Position numbers and translations under genes: made by a program. Positions 7,301-28,503 of a stretch of DNA of 64,000 nt are shown in pieces. Source of the DNA: a virus (lineage: Duplodnaviria; Heunggongvirae; Uroviricota; Caudoviricetes). The number at the start of each line of letters is the position of its first letter. Within the stretch, counting starts at the first letter, position 1. The notes beneath the pieces were generated by a model. The model was not told where the DNA came from. It searched no databases and saw only the letters and a list, made by a program, of their open reading frames with translations. The stretch spans positions 30,621 through 94,620 of the IMG/VR virus record IMGVR_UViG_3300032050_000049; one strand, given 5' to 3'.

Positions 7301-7724
7301 TGTTGGTGCTCAAACATCTGGTACTTGGACTATAGACAATGTTCAATTAGAAGCAGGTCCATTAGCAACACCATTTGAAAGACGCATGATTGGACAAGAA
7401 TTAATATTGTGTCAAAGATATTTTGCATCTATTAATGGAGCTATAGGTGCAGGTAGCGAATTAAATACATCAGCTGCATATATAAAACTACCATTGTCTG
7501 TTACGATGCGAGCAGATAATCAAACCGTCACATTATCAACAGGAAATTCTATATCAGTTGATTTATTTGGTACCGGTACATCAACTACTTCTACCAGCAA
7601 TGTAACTATCACTGCGAATCGAGCCGGTATACTTTTTAATATTAACAGTTTATCACCATCACAAGGAGCAACTGGTGTACCCGCAACAATTTTAGGAACT
7701 GTTTCGGTTTCATCCGAATTATAA
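4308..7724 (+). CDS. Modular fibre protein (1138 aa) with collagen-like run and two LamG domains
   Basis: N-terminus is near-identical to the 1111 gene. Two 'FDGT.D.L...Y[IL]DELRITKG.ARYT.NFTP' LamG signatures. Carries one YPITAS/TASYALN motif. Confidence 0.75.
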   Translation: MSLLKIRPYLINSGSFTGSFSGTGSYARRALTASYVLGGAAGSSGTSGANGSSGTSGNSGTSGTSATAGSSGTSGVGSPGTSGTAGSSGTSSTATVQTGSIAKQTLWTNVTSGSTNTITGLSLSSNKWDVSVVEEWDAATLDQYYNSSSLLCHFDSLNPAGRFIDSSRNNFTITSNGDSRLSTSQYKFGGASAYFDGTADNLLINYNNAFNLSGDFTIEVWFYPITLNGGMILNFAGGLNIAWASYELVNNTDGINFAGSSANNGYDIGSETGATGRIGTVSVNTWNHIAVTRQGNVYRGYINGVQGYTQTLALTPYNPNARGLAIGSNYATTWGVTPATVLNGYLDELRITKGVARYTANFTPSNAPFPNSRNQVLTKYVGLVGGIDDKYVDYGVQKLSDSSLKLTRLTYPNQPIVGSGSLSGSVNRVYVNVLDYTKVSVTSSYSLLSKTASYALNASGGGGSTLRTGSLYPITASWSRRAITASYALNGGTALVNQTLNYVSGSNLYTLSRSVVSPSDVLLSVNGIIQTPITDYTVSASKVTFTESYPSGSKINARYLVTATNSSDVNLANIVLTGTTTGDAYYPQVAALLHFDGVNGSTTITDNSKNNLTVTSVNGTAISTAQSKFGGASVLFDGTNDYLSIASNSVFDLLGDYTIEFWAYSSNFAAGNMGYLHRGFYTTGTATWSGLSFSIRGLSTLIRFYFYATTSANEQKIDVSLPSNNAWHHFAMVKSGTTGTVYVDGTLAGTITSLNTPAASSQTLRIGVWDYSAASEYFNGYIDELRITNGYARYTGNFTPSTTAFSNTGGDVGKSLVVNSTATGVSIGTAGFNLNSSNINRIINGAMAVDQRNAGAAQTITAAAALAYTVDRWYAYCTGANVTGQRITGSANNQFAYRFTGAASVTAIGFGQRIEAANSIDLAGSTATLGVDLANSVLTSVTWTAYYANTSDTFGTLASPTRTQISTGTFTVTSTLTRYSAQIFIPSAAITGLEIVFSVGAQTSGTWTIDNVQLEAGPLATPFERRMIGQELILCQRYFASINGAIGAGSELNTSAAYIKLPLSVTMRADNQTVTLSTGNSISVDLFGTGTSTTSTSNVTITANRAGILFNINSLSPSQGATGVPATILGTVSVSSEL
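4437..4593 (+). repeat. Collagen-like Gly-X-Y coding repeat
   Basis: Same GSSGTSG periodicity. Confidence 0.8.
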
Positions 7725-14241: not shown

Positions 14242-17200
14242 ATGAGAATAACAGATCTACCACAATTATTTACAGCGTCTATCAATGATTTGCTGTACGT
14301 AATTGATGTAAACGATACAAGTAGCTTTTTTTCTGGGTCAAGCAAAAGAATAGACATTAGTACTCTTTTTTCTTCACCTAGCATAACCGCTAGTTTTGCT
14401 AAAAAAGCATTAAGTGCTAGTTATGCTAAAACAGCCAGTTACGCACTAGTATCAAGATCATCCAGTTACGCATTTAATGCTACAACCGCAAGTTATGCAT
14501 TAAATGCTGGTACCAAAATATACACAGGCAGTGTATATCCAATAACCGCAAGTTGGGCTATCAATGGTGGCACCAAATTGTATACCGGCAGTACATACCC
14601 AATAACTTCCAGTTGGGCACTCAATGGTGGCACAAAGTTATATACTTCCAGTACATATCCAATAACCGCAAGTTGGGCCATAACCGCGAGTTACGCTTTA
14701 AATCAAACCACCAGCGGTACATCAGGCACTTCTGGCACCGCAGGTAGTAGCGGAACAAGTGGTACCAGTGGCACAAGTGGTACCAGTGGCACCAGTGGAA
14801 CAAATGGCACCAGTGGATCAAGTGGGTCAAGTGGATCAAGTGGTACATCTGCAACCGCTGGTACTAGTGGTTTAACAGGATCAAGTGGTACGAGTGGTAC
14901 AAGCGGCAGTGATGGTACCAGTGGGTCAAGCGGTAGCAGTGGCAGCAGTGGTACCAGCGGTATAGAAGGTGGTAGATTGTTTACCGTAACAAGTTCTGGA
15001 TTTAATTATAATATCGCTGGTTACACTGGATCATTTCCTACCATTACGGTGGTAAGGGGACAATTATATTACTTTGATGTAAGCGGTGTATCTGCGTCAC
15101 ATCCATTTGCCTTGAGATTGTCAAGTGGCAATACTAGTGCTGTACCTGGCACCACAAATAATGATCCTGTAAATGGATTGGCAAATACAAACACTTTAAT
15201 AATTTACAGAGTACCTGAAGACGCTCCTTCTAGTATAGTTTACCAATGTGTTGTACATTCAGGTATGATTGGAACTATAAATATAGTAAACCAATATGGT
15301 ACATCTGGTACATCTGGTACTGCGGGAACAGCCGGTAGTAGCGGAAGTAGTGGCACAAGTGGTAGTGATGGTACCAGTGGGTCTAGCGGTAGTAGTGGAG
15401 AATCTGGTACAAGTGGTAGCAGTGGAAGTAGTGGAAGTAGTGGTAGTAGCGGATCTAGCGGTAGTAGCGGTAGTAGTGGAAGTAGTGGTACAAGCGGCAG
15501 TGATGGTACCAGTGGATCCAGCGGTAGCAGTGGCAGTAGTGGAACAAGTGGTATAGAAGGTGGTGGTTTATTTACAGTAACTAGTTCTGGTTTTAATTAT
15601 AACATTGCTGGTTATTCTGGTACTTTTCCTACTATTACGGTAGTGAGAGGTCAGTTGTATTATTTTAATGTAAGCGGCGTATCTGCATCACATCCATTTG
15701 CATTGAGATTATCAAGTGGTAATACTGCAACAGTACCAGGAACAACAAACAATGATCCTGTAAATGGATTGGCAAATACAAACACTTTAATAATTTACAG
15801 AGTACCCAATGATGCGCCTAATAGTATAGTTTATCAGTGCGTTATACATTCAGGTATGATTGGAACTATAAACATAGTTGATCAATATGGTACATCCGGT
15901 ACATCTGGTACTACGGGAACAGCTGGATCAAGTGGTAGCAGTGGTAGCAGTGGTAGCAGTGGTGAAAATGGTACAAGTGGTACTAGCGGTAGTACTGGTA
16001 CAAGTGGTAGCAGTGGATCCAGTGGAAGTAGTGGAACAAGTGGTACGTCCGCAACTGCTGGTACAAGTGGTGAAACTTTTGGTACCAGTGGTACTAGCGG
16101 CAGTACAGGAACAAGTGGTACTAGTGGAGAATCTGGTACAAGTGGTAGCAGTGGATCCAGTGGAAGTAGTGGAACAAGCGGCACCAATGGTACATCTGCA
16201 ACTGCTGGTACAAGCGGTGAAACTTTTGGTACCAGTGGTACCAGTGGATTGACGGGAACTAGCGGTACATCTGGTAGTACCGGAACAAGTGGTAGCAGTG
16301 GTAGCAGTGGAGAATCAGGTACCAGTGGAAGTAGTGGACAATCTGGTACTAGTGGCAGTAGTGGTAATACTGGTAGCAGCGGTAGTAGTGGTGTGAGTGG
16401 TACTACGTTGTATACTGGTAGCACATATCCTATAACGGCTAGTAGAGCTGTTACTGCAAGTTATGCGTTGAATGCTACTGGTGGTGGAAGTTCTTTGTAC
16501 ACTGGTAGTACTTATCCGATAACTGCAAGTTGGGCACTGTATGTAGTGAATGGAACTAGTGGTACTGCTTCATTGAATTTAACTAACATTACACGTAGTG
16601 GCAATGGAAGTGGTTCTGTTTATAATTTAAATAACAATACATTTACCGGCACAAATTCTTTGGTATTTCTGGGTGGTATTACTTTAAATAATAATATTGA
16701 TTATACACTGAGTTCTGGAATATTAACATTTACTTCCCCACCACTATTAAATGAAGAAATACACGTTGTTAAATTTACAGGTGGTGGTGCAAATGGTACT
16801 AGTGGTACAAGTGGCATAGTTGGTATTGCCAATGCGCAAACATTCACAAGCAATGGTATTGCTACACAATACGCTCTTACACAAAGTGTAGTACGTAGTT
16901 ATGACATTATAGTTGCTATAAATGGTGTGGTTCAAAATTACAGTTCCAGTTATACTGTAACTGGATCTACACTTACATTAGCTTCTGCACCACCATTAAA
17001 TTCTAAAGTGGATGTCAGATTTTTAGGTAGCGCAGCTGGCGGTGGAGGAGGCGGTAGCGGCACAAACGGTACAAGTGGATCAAGTGGATCAAGTGGTACT
17101 AGCGGCACAAGTGGGTCAAGTGGAGAATCAGGTACAAGTGGATCAAGTGGAGAATCAGGTACAAGTGGGTCAAGTGGGTCAAGTGGAGAATCAGGTACAA

Positions 17201-17865
17201 GTGGGTCAAGTGGTACTAGCGGCACAAGTGGATCAAGTGGAGAATCAGGTACAAGTGGGTCAAGTGGTACTAGCGGCACAAGTGGGTCAAGTGGAGAATC
17301 AGGTACAAGTGGATCAAGTGGGTCAAGTATATCTTTGCAAACTGGCAGTTTATATCCCATAACGGCAAGTAGAGCTATTACTGCAAGTTACGCATTGAAC
17401 GCAACTGGTGGTGGAAGTTCTTTGTATACTGGTAGTACTTATCCCATAACAGCGAGTAGAGCTATTACTGCAAGTTACGCATTGAATGCTTCTGGTGGAG
17501 GTGGTAGTACATTACAAACTGGTAGCACTTATCCCATTACTAGTAGTTATGCTAATTTTGCAATAAATATTGCTGGTAGTGTTACTACATTGGTGGGTAC
17601 TGATATAAATTGGAACAATCCAACTTATGAAAAGAATATTTCAGTTGCAGAGACATATACATTTTCAAATGTTACAACTGGCAGTTCAATTGTGGTTATA
17701 TTGAATAATACAGGCAGCAACAGTATATTATCTACATTTCCAAATAGTGTAAAATGGGCCAATTCATTGCCACCCACAAATATACTATCAAATGCAACTT
17801 CAATTTATACATTTGTAAGAACCAAATTATATGTTCTGGGTAGTTCTACTGAAAACTATCAATAA
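14242..17865 (+). CDS. Giant fibre protein (1207 aa): N-terminal ITDLP module, YPITAS repeats, four collagen-like runs, two cupredoxin-like domains
   Basis: Gly-X-Y runs. Duplicated roughly 110-aa domain with 'SASHPFAL...YQCV[VI]HSGMIG' (H...C-x2-H-x2-M). Confidence 0.75.
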   Translation: MRITDLPQLFTASINDLLYVIDVNDTSSFFSGSSKRIDISTLFSSPSITASFAKKALSASYAKTASYALVSRSSSYAFNATTASYALNAGTKIYTGSVYPITASWAINGGTKLYTGSTYPITSSWALNGGTKLYTSSTYPITASWAITASYALNQTTSGTSGTSGTAGSSGTSGTSGTSGTSGTSGTNGTSGSSGSSGSSGTSATAGTSGLTGSSGTSGTSGSDGTSGSSGSSGSSGTSGIEGGRLFTVTSSGFNYNIAGYTGSFPTITVVRGQLYYFDVSGVSASHPFALRLSSGNTSAVPGTTNNDPVNGLANTNTLIIYRVPEDAPSSIVYQCVVHSGMIGTINIVNQYGTSGTSGTAGTAGSSGSSGTSGSDGTSGSSGSSGESGTSGSSGSSGSSGSSGSSGSSGSSGSSGTSGSDGTSGSSGSSGSSGTSGIEGGGLFTVTSSGFNYNIAGYSGTFPTITVVRGQLYYFNVSGVSASHPFALRLSSGNTATVPGTTNNDPVNGLANTNTLIIYRVPNDAPNSIVYQCVIHSGMIGTINIVDQYGTSGTSGTTGTAGSSGSSGSSGSSGENGTSGTSGSTGTSGSSGSSGSSGTSGTSATAGTSGETFGTSGTSGSTGTSGTSGESGTSGSSGSSGSSGTSGTNGTSATAGTSGETFGTSGTSGLTGTSGTSGSTGTSGSSGSSGESGTSGSSGQSGTSGSSGNTGSSGSSGVSGTTLYTGSTYPITASRAVTASYALNATGGGSSLYTGSTYPITASWALYVVNGTSGTASLNLTNITRSGNGSGSVYNLNNNTFTGTNSLVFLGGITLNNNIDYTLSSGILTFTSPPLLNEEIHVVKFTGGGANGTSGTSGIVGIANAQTFTSNGIATQYALTQSVVRSYDIIVAINGVVQNYSSSYTVTGSTLTLASAPPLNSKVDVRFLGSAAGGGGGGSGTNGTSGSSGSSGTSGTSGSSGESGTSGSSGESGTSGSSGSSGESGTSGSSGTSGTSGSSGESGTSGSSGTSGTSGSSGESGTSGSSGSSISLQTGSLYPITASRAITASYALNATGGGSSLYTGSTYPITASRAITASYALNASGGGGSTLQTGSTYPITSSYANFAINIAGSVTTLVGTDINWNNPTYEKNISVAETYTFSNVTTGSSIVVILNNTGSNSILSTFPNSVKWANSLPPTNILSNATSIYTFVRTKLYVLGSSTENYQ
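14509..14690 (+). repeat. 3 x 60-bp tandem repeat encoding 'GGTKLYTGSTYPITASWALN'
   Basis: Direct repeats visible in DNA and protein. Confidence 0.75.
14710..14950 (+). repeat. Collagen-like Gly-X-Y run 1 of the 14242 protein
   Basis: GTSGTSGTAGSSG... periodicity. Confidence 0.8.
14958..15300 (+). other. Cupredoxin-like domain copy 1 (amicyanin-like ligand spacing)
   Basis: 'SASHPFAL' His, 49 residues, then 'YQCVVHSGMIG' (C-x2-H-x2-M), then 'TINIV' beta-strand. Confidence 0.55.
15298..15548 (+). repeat. Collagen-like run 2
   Basis: GTSGSSG periodicity. Confidence 0.8.
15550..15890 (+). other. Cupredoxin-like domain copy 2
   Basis: Same ligand set 'SASHPFAL...YQCVIHSGMIG'. Confidence 0.55.
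15893..16400 (+). repeat. Collagen-like run 3 (longest, about 170 aa) with two 'SATAGTSGETFGTSGTSG' sub-duplications
   Basis: Gly-X-Y periodicity; internal duplicate blocks. Confidence 0.8.
17040..17330 (+). repeat. Collagen-like run 4 (GTSGSSGESG units)
   Basis: Near-perfect 27-nt sub-repeats 'ggtacaagtgggtcaagtggagaatca'. Confidence 0.8.
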
Positions 17866-17873
17866 TATGTTGT

Positions 17874-19241
17874 ATGCCTATATCAAGAATAACCAGAAAT
17901 AGTCTAGTATACGCCAATAACAAAACTCAAAACATTGAGTCTAGACTATTTGGCTTACCAACACAATCAGGCTCACTTTATTTGCAAAATAGTCAATCAC
18001 TATATTTGCAAGATTTAAGCGGTACATACGTACTAGAATATCCTTCCGCAATCGCATTATCCTATAACAGTTACTACAATAAATTCATAGCCGATAGGTC
18101 CACCCAAAACTCATTACTAACAACACGTTATTATACCAGTGAAAGTAAAGCTACTGGCGATTTTGGCTATATACTGTACCAAAATAGTAGATCAATGTAT
18201 ACTCAAGCTACCCCAGACATTTATTTGCTTGAATATAGCGCTACAAGCAGTTTGTTAACTGATACAGGATCAAGTGCTTTATCGCTCAAAACACGTTACT
18301 TTGTTAGTGAAAGTAAAGCTACTGGCGATTTTGGCTATATATTGTATCAAAATAGCAGATCAATGTATACTCAAGCTACTCCAGACATTTATTTGCTTGA
18401 ATATAACGCTACAAGCAGTTTGTTAACTGATACAGGATCAAGTGCTTTATCGCTCAAAACACGTTACTTTGTTAGTGAAAGTAAAGGAAGTGGTAACTTT
18501 GGTTATATACTGTATCAAAATAGCAGATCCGTATATCTACAAGATCCAAATAGTATACTTTTATTATATGATCCAGATATTATACCAGTTGGCACCAGTG
18601 CAAGTTTACAAGAAACTGGATCAAATGTTTTATCTTTTAGAACTCGTTATTATATCAGTGAAAGTAAAGCGTCAAGTATATATCTAGGTTATCAAAATGA
18701 TAGAAGCATCTATTTAGAAAATACTGCAAATCCATTTGTCATAGAATATAACGGTACAAGCAGTTTGTTAACTGATACCGGATCAAATGCTTTATCTTTT
18801 AGAACTCGTTATTATATCAGTGAAAGTAAAGCGTCAAGTATCTTCTTGGGTTATCAAAATGATAGAAGCATCTATTTAGAAAATACCGCAAATCCATTTG
18901 TCATAGAATATAGTGGTACAAGTAGTTTGTTAACTGATACCGGATCAAGTGCTTTATCGTTCAGAACCAAATACTATATCAGTGAAAGTAAAGCGTCAAG
19001 TATCTTCTTGGGTTATCAAAATGATAGAGCTGTATATTTGGAGAATACTGATAATCCATTTGTTATAGAATATAGTACTACGAGCAGTTTGTTAACTGAT
19101 AGCGGGTCAATTAATCAGTTATTATTAACAAAGTATTATCTCAGTGAAAGTATAGCGTCAGGTAGTTTATATATTGGATATCAAAATGATAGAAGTATCT
19201 ATTTAGAGAATTTAACCGATGTATTTGTTTTGGAGCCATAA
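17874..19241 (+). CDS. Repeat protein (455 aa), about 8 x 56-aa tandem repeats
   Basis: 'TRY[FY][IV]SESKA.G.FGY[IQ]...RS.Y...' recurs with a 168-171 nt period. Confidence 0.65.
   Translation: MPISRITRNSLVYANNKTQNIESRLFGLPTQSGSLYLQNSQSLYLQDLSGTYVLEYPSAIALSYNSYYNKFIADRSTQNSLLTTRYYTSESKATGDFGYILYQNSRSMYTQATPDIYLLEYSATSSLLTDTGSSALSLKTRYFVSESKATGDFGYILYQNSRSMYTQATPDIYLLEYNATSSLLTDTGSSALSLKTRYFVSESKGSGNFGYILYQNSRSVYLQDPNSILLLYDPDIIPVGTSASLQETGSNVLSFRTRYYISESKASSIYLGYQNDRSIYLENTANPFVIEYNGTSSLLTDTGSNALSFRTRYYISESKASSIFLGYQNDRSIYLENTANPFVIEYSGTSSLLTDTGSSALSFRTKYYISESKASSIFLGYQNDRAVYLENTDNPFVIEYSTTSSLLTDSGSINQLLLTKYYLSESIASGSLYIGYQNDRSIYLENLTDVFVLEP
18100..19210 (+). repeat. About 8 x 168-171-bp in-frame tandem repeat
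   Basis: Near-identical blocks, for example 18290-18460 and 18120-18290. Confidence 0.8.
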
Positions 19242-19302: not shown

Positions 19303-20670
19303 ATGTCAACAGGAATAAACAACAATATTGATTGTAAATTGCAAGGCAAAGTTCGTGTTGTGGTTATGGAAAAAGACAAAATCATACACGACACTGGTGA
19401 AATAAAAAATATGATCACCAATCAAGGTATGGATGAAGTTGCAAATAGACCATTTGCTGAATTATTCGCTTGTTGTGCAATTGGAACTGGAACTGCTGAT
19501 ACTAAAAAAACCAATGTTCCCATAACTGGTTCCATAACATCAGGCAATGGTTTTGATATTAATTTAAGAGGCAGTGTTTCTCGTAGATCTGGATCATTGG
19601 TAACGTTTCCCAGAACAAGTGTAGCATTTCCTATATCAGGCAGTGTTATTAGAGCAAGTGATGTGGGTAATATCATTAAAATAAACAACGATAATACTTT
19701 TAGAATAAGAGCACAAACTGGTATTAATACAGCCAGAAGTTGTAGTGTATTAAATATGGATGGTACTGTACCAACAGGATCCTCAAGTGATAATAATTAT
19801 ACCATTTGGTTTACCAATCAAATTAGTATGTCAAATGAAACACAAAGATGTGGTAGAACATCAGATGGCAATAACTTTCCTGCTGCATCAGGTAGTTATG
19901 GTACAAATTGTAATAGTCAAATTTATAGCAGCGGTATAATTCACAGTCGTCAATTTAATTTTGCAACCGCATTGGTTGATGATACAAATACAATCACTGA
20001 AGTTGGATTGAGTTGGTTACCATTTTATAGAAGTCCAGCATTGTTTAGTAGAATTCGTTTGACCCAAGGCAGTGCTGGTAATGCGATACCTGCTGTATTG
20101 GCTGGACAAAACGTGGTGGTATTTTATTCACTAAACGTTGGTATGTCGCCTACCACAGCTACAACCGGTTCTGTTAATATAACTGGTAGCAATAAAGGTG
20201 GTAATTCACAAATGAATTTGTATGGATTAAGCAAAGTAAGTAGCAGTGGAGTAACAACTTATTTTGATGGTGGGTTACACGGCAATGAACCATATTATTT
20301 TAACCAAAGAAGTAAATACGGACTACCAGATACAGTTTTTAGACCACTGTATATATTTACATCCGCAACTGATACTGCAAGTCCTACGTGGGGTACAAAT
20401 ATAACTAGAAATAGTAGTTTTATTACCAAATCAATTGATAAAACACCTGTATATAGTAGAGTATATCCCACCAGCAGTTATGGTTATACATTAACCAAAG
20501 TGGCTACATTCAATGATACTGAATCTATCAATGCAACTTGGAACAGTTTTGGTGTGGGTGTACATACAGCCAGTAACTTGATGTCATTTGTATTTGGTGC
20601 TACTCAAAATAAACAAAATGGATATTTGTTAGCAATATCTCAATCGTTTACTTGGAATAGAATATTTTAA
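19303..20670 (+). CDS. Hypothetical structural protein (455 aa)
   Basis: Long ORF after a 61-bp AT-rich gap; S/T/N-rich. Confidence 0.55.
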   Translation: MSTGINNNIDCKLQGKVRVVVMEKDKIIHDTGEIKNMITNQGMDEVANRPFAELFACCAIGTGTADTKKTNVPITGSITSGNGFDINLRGSVSRRSGSLVTFPRTSVAFPISGSVIRASDVGNIIKINNDNTFRIRAQTGINTARSCSVLNMDGTVPTGSSSDNNYTIWFTNQISMSNETQRCGRTSDGNNFPAASGSYGTNCNSQIYSSGIIHSRQFNFATALVDDTNTITEVGLSWLPFYRSPALFSRIRLTQGSAGNAIPAVLAGQNVVVFYSLNVGMSPTTATTGSVNITGSNKGGNSQMNLYGLSKVSSSGVTTYFDGGLHGNEPYYFNQRSKYGLPDTVFRPLYIFTSATDTASPTWGTNITRNSSFITKSIDKTPVYSRVYPTSSYGYTLTKVATFNDTESINATWNSFGVGVHTASNLMSFVFGATQNKQNGYLLAISQSFTWNRIF

Positions 20671-20690: not shown

Positions 20691-21869
20691 ATGCCACAAC
20701 CAATATCACAATTAGCAGACTATACAACAATAACAGGATCCGCATTTGTTCCTATTGTTGATGTTAATGAAACAGTATCATCAAAAAACAAAAAGATCAG
20801 TGTAGATGATTTGAGAAAAACTTTCTTTAAAAGTGGAGTTCTTCTTTCATCTTCTTTCACAGAACATACGCCGGGTTTTTATTACTTTGGTGACAATCGT
20901 GATGGTCGTCTCAATTTAACAGGTTCAATTGCCACTGTTAGAACTTTTGTAAGCAGATCGTTCGCAAGTACACAAGATGGCGCACCTGTCGTTAAAAACT
21001 TTAGTTCGTTGTTCATTTCCAGAAGTGTGGTGGTGAGTCCAACCAATAGATGTAGAGGATTGTTGATATTTGTGGATGGTGATGCAACCATCAGTGGTAG
21101 CATAAGTATGACTGCTAGAGGAGCGAGGTTTACAGGAAGCGACGCTTCCTTCACAACAATAAATCCGCCATATTTGGGTGATTACTGGAGCACGCAGTTG
21201 TTTCCGTCTGCGAGTTATTTGAGCAGAGTATTTGCGGTTGGAGCGGCTGGTGGTACGGCTGGCCCCGCTCCATCTAGCGTTGGTGGCGTTGGTGTCACTG
21301 GTATACTGGGAAGAAGTGGAGGTGGAGGAGGCGGCGGTGGACAAGCAGCCGCGGGTGGAGCGGGATCAACAGGCACATCTTTTAGTGGTGGATCTGGTGG
21401 TGGAGGAGGTGGGCCATCTCCAGGAGCAAATGGCTTTGCATTTGGTGGTCAAGGTGGTCCAACGCTTGGTAGCGGCGGCGCCGGATCAGGCAATCCAGGT
21501 GGAATAACGCCAGCTCAGCCGCCCAGTAGTCCACTCCCAGTCTCAGCACCAAGTGGTACTGGTGGATTGTTAATATTAATAGTGAAAGGTAATTTAAGAA
21601 TTGGACCAAATGGATCAATTACGGCTAATGGAATCAGTGGTGGTAATGGACTTGCTGGTTTTGGAACTGCTGGTGGCGGTGGAAGTGGAGGTGGAGTGTT
21701 ATATATTTATTATGGTGGGTCTTTAACAAATAATGGCACTGTAACTGCTAATGGTGGGTCAGGTGGTTTAACTGGTACACCCTCGCCAGCTCTTAATCAA
21801 GGCGGAGCAGGAGGAGCTGGAACTGCGATAATATCAAAATTAAACGTTGCATTTCCAGTAGCAAACTAA
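20691..21869 (+). CDS. Gly-rich solenoid-like paralog 1 with N-terminal ITDL module
   Basis: 'NRCRGLLIFVDGDATISG', 'GTGGLLILIVKGNLRIGPNG', 'GGGGSGGGVLYIYYGG..TNNGTVTANGGSGG'. Confidence 0.7.
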   Translation: MPQPISQLADYTTITGSAFVPIVDVNETVSSKNKKISVDDLRKTFFKSGVLLSSSFTEHTPGFYYFGDNRDGRLNLTGSIATVRTFVSRSFASTQDGAPVVKNFSSLFISRSVVVSPTNRCRGLLIFVDGDATISGSISMTARGARFTGSDASFTTINPPYLGDYWSTQLFPSASYLSRVFAVGAAGGTAGPAPSSVGGVGVTGILGRSGGGGGGGGQAAAGGAGSTGTSFSGGSGGGGGGPSPGANGFAFGGQGGPTLGSGGAGSGNPGGITPAQPPSSPLPVSAPSGTGGLLILIVKGNLRIGPNGSITANGISGGNGLAGFGTAGGGGSGGGVLYIYYGGSLTNNGTVTANGGSGGLTGTPSPALNQGGAGGAGTAIISKLNVAFPVAN

Positions 21870-21881
21870 ATAATTATTTAT

Positions 21882-23006
21882 ATGCCTACAAGAATATCAG
21901 ATTTACCCGAATATACAACAATAACATCATCAGCATTTGTGCCTATTGTTGATGTTAATGAATTGGTAGCTTCAAAAAATAAAAAAATAAGAATTGACGA
22001 TTTAAGAAAATATTTTTTCACAGGCACAACCACCAGCAGTTCTTTCACAGAACATACCCCAGGCCTTTATTACTTTGGCGATAACAGCGACGGACCTCTT
22101 AACTTAACAGGCTCTATCGCCACCGTTAGAACTTTTGTAAGCAGATCCTTCGCAAGCACTCAAGATGGCGCGCCTGTCGTTAAGAACTTCAGTTCATTGT
22201 TCATTTCCAGAAGCGTAGTAGTGAGTCCAACAAATAGATGTAGAGGAATGTTGATATTTGTGGATGGTGATGCAACTATTAGTGGTAGTCTACGAATGAA
22301 CGGCAGAGGTGCTTCCGCGGTTGGAGCTGATGCGTCTTTTACAACAATAAATCCGCCATATTTGGGTGATTACTGGAGCACGCAATTGTTTCCTTCGTCG
22401 AGTTATTTGAGCAGAGTATTTGCTGTAGGCGCAGCAGGTTCAGGCTATGGAACTGATGGGGTAACTGGTGTAAATGGAAGATCTGGTGGCGGAGGAGGTG
22501 GGTCTAGTTATGGTGCACCGACAGCAGGTTCAGGCGCAACCGGCACATCGTTTAGTGGTGGTTCTGGTGGAGGTGGATCCCAGGTTAACGTCATCGCCGG
22601 AGGAAGTGCGAGTGGAAATGGTGGCGCAGGGGGAAATGGCGCAACCGGCCCCGGCGGTACCGGCGGCGGTGGAGCTGGAAATCCAGGCGGCACTCCAAAT
22701 GGAGGTGTAGGAACAGGTGGATTATTAATATTAATTGTACGAGGTAATTTAAGAATTGGGCCAAATGGCAGTATAACATCAAATGGTAGCAATGGCGGAA
22801 ATGCAAGTAGTCCAACGCAGGGCGGAGGAGGAGGTGGAAGTGGCGGTGGGGTGTTATATGTATATTATGGCGGTACACTAACAAACAATGGCACTGTAAC
22901 CGCATCTGGAGGCACCCGTGGCACGGGTGGAAACGTTGCTGGAAACGGTGGAGCTGGAACTGCTATATTATCAAAATTAAACGTTGCATTTCCAGCAGCA
23001 AACTAA
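21882..23006 (+). CDS. Gly-rich solenoid-like paralog 2
   Basis: About 75% identical N-terminal half to paralog 1. Confidence 0.7.
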   Translation: MPTRISDLPEYTTITSSAFVPIVDVNELVASKNKKIRIDDLRKYFFTGTTTSSSFTEHTPGLYYFGDNSDGPLNLTGSIATVRTFVSRSFASTQDGAPVVKNFSSLFISRSVVVSPTNRCRGMLIFVDGDATISGSLRMNGRGASAVGADASFTTINPPYLGDYWSTQLFPSSSYLSRVFAVGAAGSGYGTDGVTGVNGRSGGGGGGSSYGAPTAGSGATGTSFSGGSGGGGSQVNVIAGGSASGNGGAGGNGATGPGGTGGGGAGNPGGTPNGGVGTGGLLILIVRGNLRIGPNGSITSNGSNGGNASSPTQGGGGGGSGGGVLYVYYGGTLTNNGTVTASGGTRGTGGNVAGNGGAGTAILSKLNVAFPAAN

Positions 23007-23019
23007 TATTTAATAATAT

Positions 23020-24054
23020 ATGGCAAATAAACGTATAACAGATTTAACCGAAGCAACTTTTGTAAGTGCGAGTAATTTTTATGTTGTGTATGATCCTACA
23101 GCTACACAAGATCAAAATGCTGATGGTTATACTGATTTTAATAAAAAAGTAAAACTAAAAAATATTTGTACCCAAGTAAGTCAATCAGCCATCACTTGGT
23201 TTGGTACAGGCGCAAATGGTGCTTTAAATACAACAGGTAGTGTTACTTTTACCACTACAAATGATCAAGAAGTATTTGTGAGAAATTATACATCTCTCAC
23301 AGTAAATGCTGGTCATACAATGACTGTAAGCAACAGATGTAGAGGATTGTTGATATATGTTGGGGGAGATTGTACTATAAATGGTACAGTAACAATGTCA
23401 GGCAAAGGAGCCAACTCGGTTGGAACAGCTGCTCATTATGTATATCAATCTAAAAATTACTATGGCAACTTTATTCCCCAATATCAATTTAACAGCGTAA
23501 AATTATATGGATCTGGTAGTGCCGGTGGACCCGCAAATACTGCTGGTAGATCCGCAGGCGAAGGTTATACAGGTGGTGGAGGCGGTGGAGGTGGAACTGG
23601 TGGTGCTGGTGCAGCAGGCACCAGTTGGAGTGGTGGATCAGGTGGAGGTGGTGGACCATCTGCAACTGCAGGCACTATAAATGGTGGTGCTGGTGGTAAT
23701 GGTACAGCTGCGAATACTGGTGGTGGTGCTGGTAATGGTGGTGGCAGTGCTGGTCCAGGTGGTATAGCTGGTGGTACTGGTACAGGTGGTTTGATTATTT
23801 TTGTGGTAAAAGGTACATTTACATTGGGAAATACAGGTGCAATAACTGCAAATGGTGTTGCGGGTGGAAATGGTAGTGCAGGAGGAGGAGGAGGTAGTGG
23901 AGGTGGAAGAATAGTTGTATTATACAATCAAAATTATATAAATAATGGTGGTACTATTACTGCAAATGGTGGAGCTGGTGGAGGAACTGCTCCAACTGCT
24001 GGTGGCAGTGGGGGAGCCGGTAGCATAACAATAAGAGAAATAGGAATTTGGTAA
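23020..24054 (+). CDS. Gly-rich solenoid-like paralog 3
   Basis: Same motif set (NRCRGLLIYVGGDCTING; GGGGSGGGRIVVLY). Confidence 0.7.
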   Translation: MANKRITDLTEATFVSASNFYVVYDPTATQDQNADGYTDFNKKVKLKNICTQVSQSAITWFGTGANGALNTTGSVTFTTTNDQEVFVRNYTSLTVNAGHTMTVSNRCRGLLIYVGGDCTINGTVTMSGKGANSVGTAAHYVYQSKNYYGNFIPQYQFNSVKLYGSGSAGGPANTAGRSAGEGYTGGGGGGGGTGGAGAAGTSWSGGSGGGGGPSATAGTINGGAGGNGTAANTGGGAGNGGGSAGPGGIAGGTGTGGLIIFVVKGTFTLGNTGAITANGVAGGNGSAGGGGGSGGGRIVVLYNQNYINNGGTITANGGAGGGTAPTAGGSGGAGSITIREIGIW

Positions 24055-24071
24055 AATATTTATAAAGTTAT

Positions 24072-25313
24072 ATGGCAATACCATCACAAGCAATATCTCA
24101 AATGACTACCTTGGTAGGTAGTAATCGTAACGACAATTGTTTATTTACATTGTATAATGCATTAATATCGTCCAGTGTCAATCAAAATTTAAAAGCAAGA
24201 ATAAGTACCCACGAACAATTTTATAGCAACAACAATACCGTCATAAATCAAGGTACTTATAATAATTACTTTGGAACAGGCAAAGATGGTAGTGTAACCA
24301 TAAGTAGCAGTGCGCAAATAAGTTCATCCACATCTCCAGCTGGATTAAATAATATTAGTCGTGAATTTGGCGACCCAGTTATAAAAAACTTTCAAAATTT
24401 AACCATCAACAGTGGTGTATTGTTCAGCCCATTAAGAGCTTGTAGAGGAATGATAATATATTGTACTGGCAATTTAACAGTAAACGGCACTTTGAGTATG
24501 ACTGGTAAAGGTGGAGGCGTTGGTTCTAAAGTCGCGTCTCCTATTGGATTTGCTACAAGCACCGATTCAAGATATGATTTGGTGGATGCTACATTATATT
24601 TTAACAATTTTTCATCAAGCACTGCAGGTGGAAGAGGAATACCTACACATTGGAATTGGGCGCCTAGTGGTAGTATTTGGTTTAATAATTATAAGATTAG
24701 AGTGCCATTGAGTGGGAGTGCTGCTGGAGGAGGACCAAATAATGGTGGTAGTGCGGGAATATTTTGTTGTGGAGGTGGAGGTGGGGGTGGTCAATCAAAC
24801 CCTGGCGCGGTAAGGGCAGGAGGATCCGGTGGTAGCGGAACTATATTTCTAGGAGGAGGGGGAGGAGGAGGAGGATCATACGGCGGCGGCGCCGGCACCA
24901 ACGGCATATTTGAAGCTGGTGGAATTGGCGGATTTGGGCCTAATCCAGGATTAGGCCCAAATGGTTCTGGCGGAGGTGGAGCTGGAACACCTGCTGGACC
25001 TGGCTCCGGAGGCGCTGGTAATACAGGCGTTGGTGGATTAATTATATTAATAGTACGTGGTAATATTACAATAAACGGCACAGTTTCTAGTGGTGGCGCA
25101 AATGGAGGTAATGGAACTACTGGAGGTGCTGGAGCTGCTGGCGGTGGCGGTGGAAGTGGCGGTGGTAGGATAATAATTATTTACGGCGGTACATATAGTA
25201 ATGTTGGTACCATTGTGGTTAATGGTGGCTCCGGCGGCGCCGGTGGCCCCGGCGCACTCACTGGTGGTGCTGGTGGTGCGGGTTCTATAACTATAAGAAG
25301 GGTAAATGTTTAA
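24072..25313 (+). CDS. Gly-rich solenoid-like paralog 4
   Basis: RACRGMIIYCTGNLTVNG; GGGGSGGGRIIIIYGG. Confidence 0.7.
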   Translation: MAIPSQAISQMTTLVGSNRNDNCLFTLYNALISSSVNQNLKARISTHEQFYSNNNTVINQGTYNNYFGTGKDGSVTISSSAQISSSTSPAGLNNISREFGDPVIKNFQNLTINSGVLFSPLRACRGMIIYCTGNLTVNGTLSMTGKGGGVGSKVASPIGFATSTDSRYDLVDATLYFNNFSSSTAGGRGIPTHWNWAPSGSIWFNNYKIRVPLSGSAAGGGPNNGGSAGIFCCGGGGGGGQSNPGAVRAGGSGGSGTIFLGGGGGGGGSYGGGAGTNGIFEAGGIGGFGPNPGLGPNGSGGGGAGTPAGPGSGGAGNTGVGGLIILIVRGNITINGTVSSGGANGGNGTTGGAGAAGGGGGSGGGRIIIIYGGTYSNVGTIVVNGGSGGAGGPGALTGGAGGAGSITIRRVNV

Positions 25314-25319
25314 AATTTT

Positions 25320-26543
25320 ATGGCTACACAAATATCAAGTTTAACAACACTAGTTAATGGCGTAAACAGTTATGATTGTTTTTTGCCATTGGTTGATCCA
25401 ACATTAGCATTAGATTCTCGTAATGTTAAAATTAGAATAAGTACCCACAATGAAATGTTCAGCAACAACTTTGCTGTAGCTAGTTTGAGCAGTTATGCAA
25501 ACTATTTTGGAACAGGCAAAGATGGTAGCTTAACCATAAGCAGCAGTGCTCAAGTAAGCGCTTCATTGAATAATATTAGTCGTGAATTTGGCGACCCAGT
25601 TATAAAAAACTTTCAAAATTTAACCATCGGCAGTGGTATATTATTTAGTCCACTAAGAGCTTGTAGAGGTATGATAATATATTGCACAGGCGATTTAACG
25701 GTGAATGGTACCATAAGTATGACTGGTAAAGGTGGAGGCGTTGGTTCTAAAGTCGCGTCTCCTATTGGATTTGCTACAAGCACCGATTCAAGATATGATT
25801 TGGTGGATGGCACATTATATTTCAATAATTTTTCATCAAGTACAGCGGGTGGTTATGGAATACCTACGCATTGGAATTGGGCGCCTAGTGGAAGTGTTTG
25901 GTTTAGGAATTATAAGATACGAGTGCCATTGAGCGGAAGTGTTGACGGTGGCAATGGTGCATCGACCGCTGCGGCTTCGGGTAATGCGGGATCAGCTGGT
26001 ATATTTAGTTGTGGTGGCGGCGGTGGTGGTGGTTCCGGAGAATCGCAGTATGGTACTTTTGGATCAGGAGCTTCTGGAGGCAGAGGAACTATATTTTCTG
26101 GTGGTGGCGGTGGAGGAGGCGGCGGCGGTGGATGTTGTGGTGGCAATGTACCTGGTACATCTGGTATTCTTGAAAGAGGAGGAGCAGGGGGAGCTTCTCC
26201 TAACGGCCCAGCGGGTGGAGGAGCGGGAACTACAACTACTGGTGGAAACGGTACATTAGGTGTTGGGGGATTATTAATATTAATTGTACGTGGAAATATA
26301 ATAATTAATGGAACTATTAGTTCAAATGGAGCTAGTGGTGGAAACGGAGTACGTATTAGTAAAGGATCTGGTGGAGGAGGTGGAAGTGGCGGTGGTCGAA
26401 TAATTATAACTTATGGCGGTACATACACTAATGCGGGTTCCGTTGTTGCAAATGGTGGATCAGGTGGTTCTGCCAGCTCTGGCGGTGGTCCAGGTGCGTC
26501 TGGTGGTGCTGGATCTATAACTACAAGAAAGATACATATATGA
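25320..26543 (+). CDS. Gly-rich solenoid-like paralog 5
   Basis: Close paralog of 24072..25313. Confidence 0.7.
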   Translation: MATQISSLTTLVNGVNSYDCFLPLVDPTLALDSRNVKIRISTHNEMFSNNFAVASLSSYANYFGTGKDGSLTISSSAQVSASLNNISREFGDPVIKNFQNLTIGSGILFSPLRACRGMIIYCTGDLTVNGTISMTGKGGGVGSKVASPIGFATSTDSRYDLVDGTLYFNNFSSSTAGGYGIPTHWNWAPSGSVWFRNYKIRVPLSGSVDGGNGASTAAASGNAGSAGIFSCGGGGGGGSGESQYGTFGSGASGGRGTIFSGGGGGGGGGGGCCGGNVPGTSGILERGGAGGASPNGPAGGGAGTTTTGGNGTLGVGGLLILIVRGNIIINGTISSNGASGGNGVRISKGSGGGGGSGGGRIIITYGGTYTNAGSVVANGGSGGSASSGGGPGASGGAGSITTRKIHI

Positions 26544-26908
26544 GAGATAAAATTATAATATATAGCGTTCATGACAAAACGAGCAGAGAATTTGTTGCTG
26601 CATATGGTAACAGAAACGACGTTACTGTGTTGGAAGATGACGGATATAGTGTTCGAATAAAATATCCATACATTAGTGCTTTTCCAACTGTAATAATAAA
26701 TACACCTTCATATACGGAGTCTTTTATTGTAGATGAAGGTGGAGGCGGTGCATTTGTAAATTTAGATTCTATTGGAAATGAAACAATAGTGCCAGAAGAT
26801 GTAGAATATATTAGATCTCCTAAAGATTGGAATGAAGTACAACAACGTATTGATTATTGGGAAAACAAAGTGCCCAATTGGAAACAAACTGATACTAGAT
26901 ATTTATGA
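26540..26908 (+). CDS. Hypothetical protein; paralog of 28174..28503
   Basis: 'IHDK.SREFVAAYGNRNDVTVLEDDG...RIDYWENKVPNWKQTD' is shared with the 28174 protein. Confidence 0.55.
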   Translation: MRDKIIIYSVHDKTSREFVAAYGNRNDVTVLEDDGYSVRIKYPYISAFPTVIINTPSYTESFIVDEGGGGAFVNLDSIGNETIVPEDVEYIRSPKDWNEVQQRIDYWENKVPNWKQTDTRYL

Positions 26909-27579
26909 CAAGATATACCATTTTAGGCGAACGTAGATCAGGTACTAATTTTTTGCAACATTGTATAACTGACAACTTCAATTTACAATTAGATTGGTTA
27001 AAAGGATGGAAACATTTTTTTGGATGTAATGGTTATGAAGATAAATTGAAGAATAACCAAGACGTAATATACTTGTGTATTGTTAGAAATCCAATTGATT
27101 ATTTTGTATCATTTTATAATTCTAAATTGATGCAAAGTGAAGAACGTACAAAAGATATTGAAACGTTTTTATTATCAGAATTTTATTCAGTTTATAACTA
27201 TAAAAACGGATTAATTGACGTATCAGACGACTATAATTTTAAAAATAACAATAAGCGTTACAAAAACATATTTGAAATGCGATCCGTTAAATGTAAATAT
27301 TTGTTAGATGATATGCCTAATTTAGTGAGTAAATATCATTTTATAAGATATGAAGATTTAAAACATAATACTAATACTGTATTGAATACAATTAGTGATA
27401 AATTTAATCTTATAAAAAAGAATGACAATTATTTAATAAATACAAATTATGTCGGTGTAAAAATTAATGGAGGTGTTATAACAGAAAATTATCAAGTTGA
27501 AGATAAAATAAAACAGATAATATATAACAATATAGATTTATCGACAGAACATAGAATGGGTTATTTGACCGATATATGA
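26905..27579 (+). CDS. Putative PAPS-dependent sulfotransferase
   Basis: 5'-PSB-like 'ILGERRSGTNFL' and 3'-PB-like 'VRNPIDYFVSFY'. Confidence 0.6.
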   Translation: MTRYTILGERRSGTNFLQHCITDNFNLQLDWLKGWKHFFGCNGYEDKLKNNQDVIYLCIVRNPIDYFVSFYNSKLMQSEERTKDIETFLLSEFYSVYNYKNGLIDVSDDYNFKNNNKRYKNIFEMRSVKCKYLLDDMPNLVSKYHFIRYEDLKHNTNTVLNTISDKFNLIKKNDNYLINTNYVGVKINGGVITENYQVEDKIKQIIYNNIDLSTEHRMGYLTDI

Positions 27580-28139
27580 AATTATACTCATATGATATAA
27601 CTGAATTTAATTTTAAAGAGCAATTACAAACTGTTTTGAACGTGTCTAATTTAGATGATTTGGGGGAAAACAAAGATAAAGAGAAACTGTATTCTGAGTA
27701 TATTTTGGGTAAACAGTTTTTAGATATGTATGTACAGTTTATAAAAAAATATGTTAGAAATTTGTACGATGACGTTATAGCATATCAAACTAAACCAGTA
27801 TGTAGATTGGTATATAAAAATAAATTAAATATGCATAAACTTCATAAAGACAAGTGGTATAGAAGAAATACTATTTATAGTGATATGCAGATAGATAATA
27901 TTTTTTTACCATTTACAAATGCTTTTGATACAAACACAATTTGGACTGAATCAGTTGAAGACAGTCACGATTTTTTTCCGATAAATTGTGATTACGGACA
28001 ATTTGTACACTGGGATGGTTGCAATTTACTTCACGGTAATAAATTTAATAATACTAACAAAACAAGACTGAGTATAGATTTTAGAGTTTATAAATACAAA
28101 AATTTATTACACCCAGAGTATTCTTTATTGAATTTTTAG
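27576..28139 (+). CDS. Hypothetical protein with a weak HxD...H...RxS (Fe/2OG dioxygenase-like) pattern
   Basis: 'SHDFF', 'LLHG', 'RLSIDFR'. Functional call is speculative. Confidence 0.5.
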   Translation: MKLYSYDITEFNFKEQLQTVLNVSNLDDLGENKDKEKLYSEYILGKQFLDMYVQFIKKYVRNLYDDVIAYQTKPVCRLVYKNKLNMHKLHKDKWYRRNTIYSDMQIDNIFLPFTNAFDTNTIWTESVEDSHDFFPINCDYGQFVHWDGCNLLHGNKFNNTNKTRLSIDFRVYKYKNLLHPEYSLLNF

Positions 28140-28173
28140 AAGAAAAACTATTTATTAGTTACACAAAGAGATT

Positions 28174-28503
28174 ATGAGAGATACAATTATAATACATAAT
28201 ATTCATGACAAAGCGAGTAGAGAATTTGTTGCTGCATATGGTAACAGAAATGATGTTACTGTATTGGAAGACGACGGACTAAATGTACGTTTAGCGTTTC
28301 CTTATATCAGCGCTTTTCCTACTGTTGTAATACCCACACCATCTTATGAAAATACAGATGAAAATGGAACAGTAACCCAAATCGAAGGATCTATAGAATA
28401 TCTAAGAGCACCTGAAGATTGGAATACAGTACAAACACGAATTGATTATTGGGAAAACAAAGTACCCAATTGGAAACAAACTGATAGTAGATACAAACAA
28501 TAA
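28174..28503 (+). CDS. Hypothetical protein; paralog of 26540..26908
   Basis: About 60% identity with the 26540 protein. Confidence 0.55.
   Translation: MRDTIIIHNIHDKASREFVAAYGNRNDVTVLEDDGLNVRLAFPYISAFPTVVIPTPSYENTDENGTVTQIEGSIEYLRAPEDWNTVQTRIDYWENKVPNWKQTDSRYKQ

Follow-up and report, generated by a model that had tools for sequence, protein, structure and literature searches.

Host range in T-even phages and haloarchaeal myoviruses is determined by glycine-rich adhesins, and the only solved structure is of the small gp38 type. T-even gp38 combines a beta-helix with a polyglycine sandwich (PMC6851490), and the predicted anatomy of the proteins described here runs parallel to it. In haloarchaeal viruses, the gene for a glycine-rich adhesin tracks host range in plating assays, and the hypervariable segments of the hafunavirus adhesin have been likened to those of T-even gp38 (Liu et al. 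2021, PMC8651126). In HRTV-15, this adhesin (gp33, 334 aa) is encoded directly after the tail fibre gene gp32 and the baseplate genes.

A locus with five consecutive genes for glycine-rich proteins was analysed in the window (the whole stretch of viral DNA under study, 64,000 nucleotides). These five genes of a large uncultured tailed phage rather probably encode modular host-recognition adhesins (putative receptor-binding proteins), whose location in the virion, binding to receptors, oligomeric state, docking partner, and polyglycine-II geometry are presumptive.

The five-gene array and its surroundings

The array consists of p1 (20691–21869, 392 aa), p2 (21882–23006, 374 aa), p3 (23020–24054, 344 aa), p4 (24072–25313, 413 aa), and p5 (25320–26543, 407 aa), all on the + strand and with gaps of 6–17 nt between successive open reading frames (ORFs). 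Identities were 77% for p1–p2, 71% for p4–p5, and 39–44% for the remaining pairs; p1/p2 and p4/p5 are recent duplicate pairs. A family HMM detected p1 at E 2e-81 and also matched p2, p4, and p5. The glycine-poor N-terminal halves were aligned with SEG switched on (E 1e-10 to 1e-16), and the paralogy is therefore not an artefact of composition. The five proteins are true paralogs, as stated in an earlier note made from the sequence alone, and the coordinates given there for five consecutive genes of 344–413 aa (20691–26543) proved exact. The three spaced motifs listed in the same note were retrieved by regular expression from all five proteins, one copy each and in the same order (for example NRCRGLLIFV, GTGGLLILIVKG, and GGGGSGGGV), and the poly-Gly tracts placed between them are present as runs of 4–11 Gly. 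No DNA tandem repeats scoring 80 or more were found inside the five genes, so that slippage-prone repeats are not evident.

The N-terminal module of the paralogs (N-module) was represented by an HMM built from 63 N-termini, with p4 and the fibre ORF 14242 left out. Both omitted proteins were matched, p4 at E 7.9e-8 and ORF 14242 at E 8.9e-8 (25.5 bits), and none of the other window ORFs (132 in all) scored better than E 0.21; the module is therefore common to six proteins. It had been assigned to only four of the five paralogs, a count to be corrected to five of five, with a diverged module in p4, whereas its assignment to the start of the 14242 fibre protein was borne out. This ORF (14242–17865) encodes a collagen-like protein of 1207 aa (PF01391, E 7.5e-50; tail-fibre PHROG match) with the module at aa 1–42 (14242–14367, + strand), and it was aligned to p2 N-terminus to N-terminus (BLASTP, E 4e-4). 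The module of 45–55 aa would probably dock all six proteins at one kind of virion site, and its sharing with the fibre fits the common attachment adaptor that had been suggested. Only chance matches (E ≥ 3) were obtained by tblastn with the 48-aa N-module, and a protein-database search with the N-module alignment, made somewhat circular by the inclusion of ORF 14242 in the alignment, returned 11 short fragments only.

A + strand block (about 26 kb) of fibre and virion-structural genes ends with the array, which is preceded in the window by 11 fibre-like ORFs. Collagen-like, LamG, T7-tail-fibre-N, and Gly_rich_2 proteins are encoded in the block, and its PHROG matches were to tail fibre, baseplate wedge, and virion structural proteins. 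All five genes are kept in related contigs (one of 251,660 bp), p2 is identical to a protein (P0002) found on contigs up to 184 kb, and orthologs of all five are recognisable in lineages about 68% identical. A diverged relative (L032) has a four-member array with the same flanking genes. The ORF upstream of the array (19303–20670, + strand, 455 aa) is a conserved syntenic partner, with 48% identity to the ORF preceding the L032 array and a position kept in six contigs (L001–L006); it had no Pfam, PHROG, or NCBIfam match.

On the 3′ side, a conserved small gene (26540–26908, + strand, 122 aa) overlaps the stop codon of p5. Its product is 64% identical to that of a paralog at 28174–28503, a 96-aa homolog of which (54% identity) directly follows the L032 array; in another contig (L005) the array is followed by a 109-aa ORF. 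The 26540–26908 ORF matched no family and did not resemble gp34, the small hafunavirus gene that follows the adhesin; that it serves the assembly of fibres or adhesins is only a conjecture. A sulfotransferase cassette is located just downstream of the array. The T4 late-promoter motif TATAAATA was not enriched (19 found vs 14.4 expected), and scans for sigma-70 promoters and terminators were uninformative.

Predicted fold and sequence variation

The structure of p3 was modelled with AF2 from a 71-sequence alignment (mean pLDDT 86.7, pTM 0.81; pLDDT about 96–98 across residues 61–344). An ordered fold is predicted for the paralogs instead of disordered low-complexity sequence. The model of p3 comprises the N-module (aa 1–60), predicted with low confidence on its own, as would be usual for a segment whose folding depends on a partner, followed by rungs (aa 68–125), a hairpin (aa 138–162), the Gly-rich insert (aa 165–257, nt 23512–23790), and further rungs with Gly arcs (aa 258–340), about 5 rungs in all. 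In p1, the N-module (aa 1–49) precedes the beta-helix/Gly domain (aa ~56–392), which contains the central Gly-rich insert (aa 190–292, nt 21258–21566, 41% Gly). The corresponding inserts are located at aa 182–280 of p2 (nt 22425–22721), aa 214–322 of p4 (nt 24711–25037), which also carries a larger insertion after rung 2, and aa 212–317 of p5 (nt 25953–26270). The Gly content of this central extended turn is 41–50% in the paralogs.

The insert of 90–110 residues and two arcs of ~20 residues were modelled with very high confidence and no regular DSSP structure, a feature that is no more than compatible with a polyglycine-II arrangement. Known beta-helices were aligned over about 110 residues only, about one third of the domain. 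The glycine-rich beta-solenoid proposed in the earlier note therefore holds for the ordered fold with its beta-helix core, but not as a plain solenoid. The top structural matches were secreted non-enzymatic adhesins, and fold-level matches to the domain were found in giant-virus collagen-like proteins. The beta-helix adhesins of the TPS/autotransporter type (EtpA, HMW1, FHA, HxuA, VacA p55) are 12–17% identical to the paralogs and, unlike these, have no Gly-rich insert. Membership of the TPS or haemagglutination-activity domain families was judged by sequence match, not by the beta-helix fold alone, and was rejected, no Pfam match to either domain having been obtained.

Population variation was followed in 117 metagenomic homologs of p1/p2 type. 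Column entropy was low (0.04–0.6) across the N-half and the strands of the rungs, and high (1.2–2.2, with indels) only in short stretches between the glycine motifs. Part of this inter-motif variability could stem from weaker constraint and from uncertain alignment of low-complexity sequence. The N-halves fell into 10 classes and the C-halves into 25, several of the latter being common to p1-type and p2-type N-halves, and among 301 pairs whose N-halves were ≥95% identical, 106 had C-halves of ≤65% identity. The Gly-rich half is shuffled independently of the N-half.

An adhesin of this kind would carry, beyond the docking module, a short right-handed beta-helix stalk composed of N-proximal and C-terminal rungs, and a Gly-rich block formed by the 90–110-residue insert between rungs 2 and 3 together with the two ~20-residue arcs on the turns of the last rungs. 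The conserved glycine motifs would provide a rigid, closely packed scaffold, probably a lattice of extended or polyglycine-II-like character, and the hypervariable segments between them would be exposed as loops touching the host receptor. New specificity could be gained by point changes and indels in the loops, and recombination could swap the whole Gly-rich half between alleles and paralogs. With five diverged copies on a single anchor, the phage would have several receptor specificities at once.

Distribution of the domain and families excluded

No Pfam or NCBIfam model was found for the domain of roughly 290 aa, and PDB sequence searches with two profiles returned artificial Gly/Ser linkers only. 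The domain is nonetheless abundant in metagenomes (2118 clusters at 50% identity) and occurs in phages and in bacteria, Patescibacteria among them, as well as in one or more archaeal (DPANN) MAGs; in Patescibacteria and DPANN it is found on surface proteins. It is C-terminal in proteins with collagen and F5/8-type-C domains, in pilin-like proteins with Ig domains, and in PKD/cadherin surface proteins. In L027, an unrelated contig of phage-like character, it is C-terminal in the product of the fourth gene downstream of one that resembles a tape-measure gene. A search of viral contigs for related loci, dominated by the GGGGSGGG pattern, yielded 2. No cultured relative is known; among GenBank phages (50,697 records), no match was found by tblastn of p1 and p4, and none by megablast for the array or for 24 kb of the window.

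Several glycine-rich families were excluded. The RTX calcium-binding beta-roll had been dismissed earlier on the grounds of many glycines and no Asp; the dismissal stands, since the five paralogs contain no GGxGxD nonapeptides (Pfam HemolysinCabind: none at E ≤ 1), but Asp is absent only from the glycine motifs, with 6–12 residues per protein. A collagen triple helix was rejected for the paralogs (longest G-X-Y run 0–4 triplets; no PF01391 match). The C-terminus of the fibre ORF 1111–3909, which had been taken for the same domain, was found to be Gly_rich_2 (PF21722; 3109–3795, + strand; 73.3 bits, E 3.9e-20) and lies outside the family: the hhalign probability against the family profile was 2%, the family HMM did not report it at E ≤ 10 with all filters off, and none of the three motifs was present. 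Neither PF21722 nor PF12810 matched the five paralogs at E ≤ 1. The ALK_LTK_GRD domain (PF12810), PF21722, and the Pam3 gp24 fibre tip are, as proposed for the paralogs, extracellular or fibre-tip recognition domains of stacked Gly-rich motifs, but the PF12810/PF21722 type has a TNF-like beta-sandwich in place of the beta-helix scaffold. A PF12810 protein adjoins a family member in one contig (L026). The NCBIfam match to AgmC_N was far under the cut-off and limited to 1–2 members, and at most a possible remote relative is indicated.

Function and comparison with known adhesins

Side fibres or decoration proteins had been suggested earlier for the array. The fibre-gene context agrees with this suggestion, but a receptor-binding adhesin is favoured by the shuffling of cassettes and by homology with the adhesin of hafunaviruses. 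Structural or decorative fibre subunits without receptor specificity (whiskers, head/neck fibres, or baseplate ornaments), of which the five would co-assemble as a hetero-oligomer with the Gly lattice as a rigid block, are considered unlikely. The stable retention of five orthologs in the lineages about 68% identical is what a complex of fixed stoichiometry predicts, the shared N-module could drive co-assembly, and beta-helices are common in purely structural fibres; however, the L032 array has four members, not five, both closest pairs were duplicated recently, and the characterised hafunavirus relative is a host-range determinant. Free exchange of Gly-rich halves among alleles and paralogs, moreover, typifies specificity cassettes, not co-adapted subunits.

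Tailspike-like enzymes, that is, beta-helix depolymerases or esterases acting along the helix face on host capsule or S-layer glycan, are highly improbable. About 5 rungs and ~110 alignable residues are far below the size of known depolymerase spikes, only 2–4 Glu besides the 6–12 Asp are present per protein, and no enzyme family was matched in Pfam, NCBIfam, or PHROGs; the best structural matches, as noted, were non-enzymatic. In favour of an enzyme are the Asp of a DGD motif (D82 in p3), which hardly varies, and a Cys-Arg/Lys-Gly motif that is largely conserved; glycines, however, make up most of what is conserved in the wider family, and the Cys itself is sometimes replaced. Marginally less credible still are non-virion proteins made in infection and acting on the host surface or on competitors (superinfection exclusion, receptor masking), with bacterial homologs as ordinary cell-surface proteins. 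The many cellular members from Patescibacteria and other bacteria, in which Ig, PKD, or cadherin domains accompany N-termini resembling signal peptides or pilins, speak for such a role, as does the sulfotransferase cassette. None of the five paralogs, however, has a signal-peptide-like start; their N-module is shared with a collagen-like fibre, their genes are co-directional and closely spaced inside the fibre block, and the viral relative occupies the tail-fibre/adhesin slot after baseplate genes.

With host-recognition adhesins as the preferred reading, a broader proposal may be put forward tentatively. The ~290-aa module is possibly an undescribed, very widespread cell-surface recognition domain of viruses (tailed phages and archaeal tailed viruses) and of host-attached episymbionts (Patescibacteria/CPR, DPANN), with pilin-like and Ig-rich surface proteins as its carriers in the latter, and diversified by the exchange of cassettes delimited by glycine motifs; at this locus, five adhesins and one collagen fibre in a common socket might form a multi-receptor "bouquet" that swaps modules between paralogs in natural populations. 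Definition of the domain, which has no curated family model, would annotate thousands of "hypothetical" receptor-binding proteins and would point to the specificity-setting segments in uncultured phages. The locus, with five paralogs, one anchor, and shuffled cassettes, is a natural system for the study of multiple phage specificities.

By sequence comparison, the closest characterised relatives are the Gly-rich tail-fibre adhesins of haloarchaeal Hafunaviridae. In tblastn searches, a family member (P0142) matched genes annotated as "putative adhesin" in nine Hafunaviridae (best E 3e-5). The family profile was aligned to HRTV-15 gp33 by hhalign with a probability of 96% (E 3e-9) over 59 N-terminal columns only; in the rest of the match the motif order is co-linear, with a HMMER bias-corrected score of about zero. 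Both types of protein are encoded in the tail-fibre region and are of similar size (334 aa vs 344–413 aa), with the motif order of an N-proximal beta-helix part (YG.G..GD...Y.NLTIN.G.T.T), a Gly-rich centre, and rungs (GGL.VII...TI.A..GG.GGNG...GGSGGGGGG.I.I), and in both, conserved glycine motifs alternate with hypervariable segments. In contrast to the paralogs, the hafunavirus adhesin begins with the domain itself, without the N-module, lacks the NRC(K/R)G motif, and is encoded by a single gene after one fibre gene instead of a five-gene array.

The comparison with T-even gp38 is one of design. Both S16 gp38 (PDB 6F45) and the paralogs have an N-terminal attachment segment and a small beta-helix assembled from N- and C-proximal strands, the turns of which extend into a Gly-rich block with conserved glycine motifs and hypervariable loops, and modular shuffling of the Gly-rich part recalls the recombination-hotspot idea for gp38. 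The Gly-rich portion is about twice as large here (roughly 130–150 residues vs 73). Whereas gp38 is a monomer at the distal tip of a trimeric fibre, the N-module of the paralogs is shared with the N-terminus of a fibre protein (ORF 14242), which suggests proximal docking. Sequence homology to gp38 was rejected (hhalign against S16 gp38, 0.5%; no Pfam GP38 match at E ≤ 1). Judged in this way, the paralogs would represent a larger version of the gp38-type design, sequence-unrelated or very remote, and current understanding is not overturned, because the design principle is already known from the earlier adhesins.

The five-gene array

The array consists of five consecutive ORFs on the + strand, p1 (20691-21869, 392 aa), p2 (21882-23006, 374 aa), p3 (23020-24054, 344 aa), p4 (24072-25313, 413 aa) and p5 (25320-26543, 407 aa); neighbouring genes are 6-17 nt apart. 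Their full-length alignment contained 66 invariant columns, and pairwise identity was 77% for p1-p2, 71% for p4-p5 and 39-44% for the remaining pairs. Glycine makes up 22-26% of residues; the glycine-poor N-terminal parts (N-halves) still matched with low-complexity filtering on (E 1e-10 to 1e-16), so the likeness is not a composition effect, and the family HMM, with every filter disabled, matched p1-p5 alone among the window ORFs. Each of the three motifs quoted in the earlier note occurred once per paralog, always in a constant order, and the poly-Gly tracts that it placed between them were recovered as runs of 4-11 Gly. Its remark that Asp is lacking held for the glycine motifs (zero GGxGxD matches) but not for the proteins overall, which contain 6-12 Asp each.

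The C-terminus of the fibre protein ORF 1111 had been assigned the same domain. It was matched instead by Pfam PF21722 Gly_rich_2 (E 3.9e-20), with a Laminin_G_3 domain ahead of it, and carried none of the three motifs. Neither PF21722 nor any other Pfam family matched p1-p5 at E<=1, and alignment of the p1-p5 profile with the ORF 1111 Gly_rich_2 domain in hhalign gave a probability of 2%. The two are thus distinct glycine-rich domains.

An HMM of the shared N-terminal segment (N-module) was built from 63 distinct homolog N-termini, p4 and the collagen-like fibre ORF 14242 being left out, and was run on residues 1-60 of each of the 132 window ORFs starting with ATG. It recovered p4 (E 7.9e-8) and ORF 14242 (E 8.9e-8), the next best window ORF scoring E 0.21; in BLASTP, residues 4-41 of p2 aligned to 2-42 of ORF 14242 (E 4e-4). 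The module is therefore common to the fibre, as had been proposed, and to all five paralogs rather than to four: p4, thought to start differently, carries a diverged copy.

ORFs of 90-140 aa rich in Pro or Val, on the minus strand and in other frames of p1-p5 (20882-25331; e.g., 23565-23927, minus strand), are by-products of GGN-rich coding sequence and not genes. On a related contig (L003 12191-14450, corresponding to window 24072-26543) the p4 ortholog is split into 135+271 aa and the p5 ortholog, ~190 nt shorter, into 70+274 aa, which could be an artefact of assembling glycine-coding sequence, or else true frameshifting or decay affecting two copies out of five.

Phage and gene neighbourhood

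No GenBank phage matched the window at the DNA level. The nearest relatives of its DNA ligase were those of an uncultured 595-kb phage (48% identity) and Caulobacter phage Cr30 (45%); RNA ligases, thymidylate synthase, an SPFH protein and a glycosyltransferase are also encoded. Near-identical and ~68% identical versions of the locus were found in metagenomes, the contigs reaching 184 kb and 251,660 bp, so the source is a large uncultured phage. From position 24 to ~29 kb all genes lie on the + strand. This block, apparently a module for fibres or the virion, holds collagen-like proteins, LamG proteins, a T7-tail-fibre-N match and Gly_rich_2, together with many PHROG matches in the categories tail fibre, baseplate wedge and virion structural.

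The five-gene array was kept in all related loci. In a diverged relative (L032), a homolog of ORF 19303 (48% identity) is followed by four family members, all with the N-module, by a homolog of the small ORF after the window array, and by a LamG fibre; the cassette is thus old and its copy number variable. Downstream of the array, small paralogous ORFs of 122 aa (26540-26908) and 109 aa (28174-28503), 64% identical, bracket a sulfotransferase-like gene (26905-27579; Pfam Sulfotransfer_1, E 3e-6) and a 187-aa ORF without annotation (27576-28139). A 251-kb relative (L005) lacks this insert and has a single small ORF after the array, so that 26540-28503 looks like a duplication-bounded cassette gained beside it.

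Repetitive ORFs lie upstream. ORF 17874-19241 (455 aa), between ORF 14242 and the array, has no family match and comprises approximately seven ~55-aa units (...SLLTDTGS.ALS..T.Y..SESKA...GY..QN.RS.Y....) encoded by 162-168-nt tandem repeats of 85-94% identity; it could be a repeated docking platform. ORF 11767-14217 (816 aa), where GC falls to 28%, has no Pfam or PHROG match and contains a 19-aa unit (LGSQYYV.FYD.SQTAVST) approximately seven times over, its DNA forming 57/114-nt tandem repeats. The motif GS.YPITAS[WR]A(I/V)TASYALN recurs across fibre proteins (24-809, 4308-7724 and 14242-17865), and a fragmentary homolog of the N-terminus of ORF 14242 matched 26 positions of Pfam PF24243 Phage_tail_C ('phage tail tip domain'). 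This suggests a repeated shaft or tip motif common to the fibres.

Predicted fold, variation and spread of the family

The earlier note had named predicted disorder without a repeat fold as a result that would refute its reading; in fold prediction the paralogs came out as ordered, so the reading is not refuted on this ground. A model of p3 from 60 sequences of close homologs reached a mean pLDDT of 70.6 (pTM 0.71), and one from 71 diverse family members 86.7 (pTM 0.81). The latter had pLDDT ~96-98 over residues 61-344, with a dip at 141-160, and confidence still low for the first 60 residues. DSSP placed rungs of three strands at 86-103 and 110-125; a hairpin occupies 138-162, where the larger insertion of p4 and p5 falls. 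Later rungs, at 258-276 and 297-314, each lead into a glycine arc of ~20 residues, and the last strand is at 335-340; the insert at 165-257 is 49% Gly and has no regular secondary structure. Fold matches in BFVD were uncultured Caudovirales proteins and collagen-like proteins of Orpheovirus and Pandoravirus (E 1e-5 to 1e-8, TM ~0.4). Layout and matches together point to a predicted small right-handed beta-helix as the core. No solved structure matched the ordered glycine-rich block of ~130-150 residues, which may adopt polyglycine-II geometry.

Variation was analysed in 117 p1/p2-type homologs. Column entropy was 0.04-0.6 across the N-half and the rung strands, and values of 1.2-2.2 with indels occurred only in short segments between glycine motifs (about 186-200, 211-228, 241-256, 271-290, 315-328 and 358-370 in p1 numbering). 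The N-halves fell into 10 classes at >=88% identity and the glycine-rich C-halves into 25 at >=75%; N-halves of p1 and p2 type each occurred with 13-16 C-half classes, several common to both. Among 301 pairs with N-halves >=95% identical, 106 had C-halves <=65% identical, and 59 of 268 pairs with C-halves >=90% identical had N-halves <=85% identical, comparisons in which glycine-rich sequence aligns imperfectly. This decoupling indicates that the glycine-rich half acts as an exchangeable cassette. That C-half identities of both ~98% and ~57% occur at equal N-half identity speaks for discrete alleles and against noise.

Searched by profile, a set of 1.84 billion cluster representatives yielded 2118 proteins at E<=1e-3, 330 of them at E<=1e-30. 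The conserved unit of ~290-320 aa (profile positions ~55-370) usually starts with NYFGDGSDG...DGDMVVKNY..LTIN.G.T.T..NRCKGL.IYV.GD.TINGT.SMTARGA and occurs alone (proteins of 320-400 aa) or C-terminally in proteins of up to 7394 aa, with partners such as Collagen and F5/8 type C (P0158), an N-terminal type IV pilin methylation motif and Ig-like domains (P0174), or DUF5122, PKD, cadherin and TIG (P0149). Across 71 diverse members, no Pfam or NCBIfam model covered the domain, the sole match being a sub-threshold AgmC_N; one PHROGs family without annotation (phrog_13336, 339 positions) matched its first ~70 positions, and no PDB entry was related by sequence. A genome scan for NYFGDGSDG, with candidates verified by the family HMM, placed the domain in Patescibacteria, Kaiserbacteria, Anaerolineales, Desulfohalobiaceae, a deltaproteobacterium, Cohnella silvisoli and a Pacearchaeota MAG. 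In the Patescibacteria SAG AM-311-P01 (L017 4780-7323), the 848-aa protein MFC1653590.1 has a signal-peptide-like N-terminus ahead of two complete tandem copies; these copies and the pilin motif of P0174 hint at a role in episymbiont-host attachment. On an unrelated 96.8-kb contig (L026 10001-11989), a stand-alone 345-aa member precedes a 314-aa PF12810 ALK_LTK_GRD protein, so that two different glycine-rich recognition domains co-occur there, as do ORF 1111 and the array in the window.

Interpretation and relation to characterised adhesins

We consider it probable that p1-p5 are modular receptor-binding adhesins, in which the shared N-module would dock each of the five proteins, the beta-helix would serve as the stalk, and the glycine-motif scaffold would present hypervariable loops. 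A hetero-oligomeric structural or decorative appendage built from the five paralogs appears unlikely; a small enzymatic spike is a good deal less probable, and least weight is given to a non-virion protein acting on the surface.

Glycine-rich fibre adhesins with conserved motifs and hypervariable segments are already known as a kind of protein, as is the adhesin label of the hafunavirus relatives. What is new is a large family of unsolved structure, missing from the curated libraries Pfam and NCBIfam, its extension to surface proteins of CPR and DPANN, and the arrangement of five paralogs per phage on one anchor, also common to a collagen fibre, with cassettes swapped among them.

For p1-p5 as adhesins, the link to characterised proteins was made with the consensus-like member P0142, which in tblastn matched 'putative adhesin' genes of nine Hafunaviridae. 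In HRTV-15 this gene (gp33, 334 aa) directly follows the tail fibre gene gp32 and baseplate genes. The family profile aligned to gp33 in hhalign with a probability of 96% (E 3e-9), limited to the first 59 columns; in the remainder the motif order is co-linear with the family, but the score is cancelled by HMMER bias correction. According to Liu et al. 2021 (PMC8651126), this glycine-rich hafunavirus protein resembles T-even fibre-tip adhesins in its typical features, hypervariable segments included; its phylogenetic groups follow host range in plating assays, and they identify the gene as the key determinant of hafunavirus host range.

In the T-even adhesin S16 gp38, a domain for attachment at the N-terminus leads into a beta-helix of five rings, from which two turns (18 and 77 residues) extend as a polyglycine-II sandwich with three layers and 10 glycine motifs; the loops between these motifs are hypervariable and tied to host range (PMC6851490, PMC12032242). 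S16 gp38 has no sequence homology to the family (hhalign probability 0.5%), yet the predicted anatomy of the paralogs follows its design on a larger scale. Exchange of the glycine-rich part has long been described for gp38, and the p1/p2-type homologs behave likewise.
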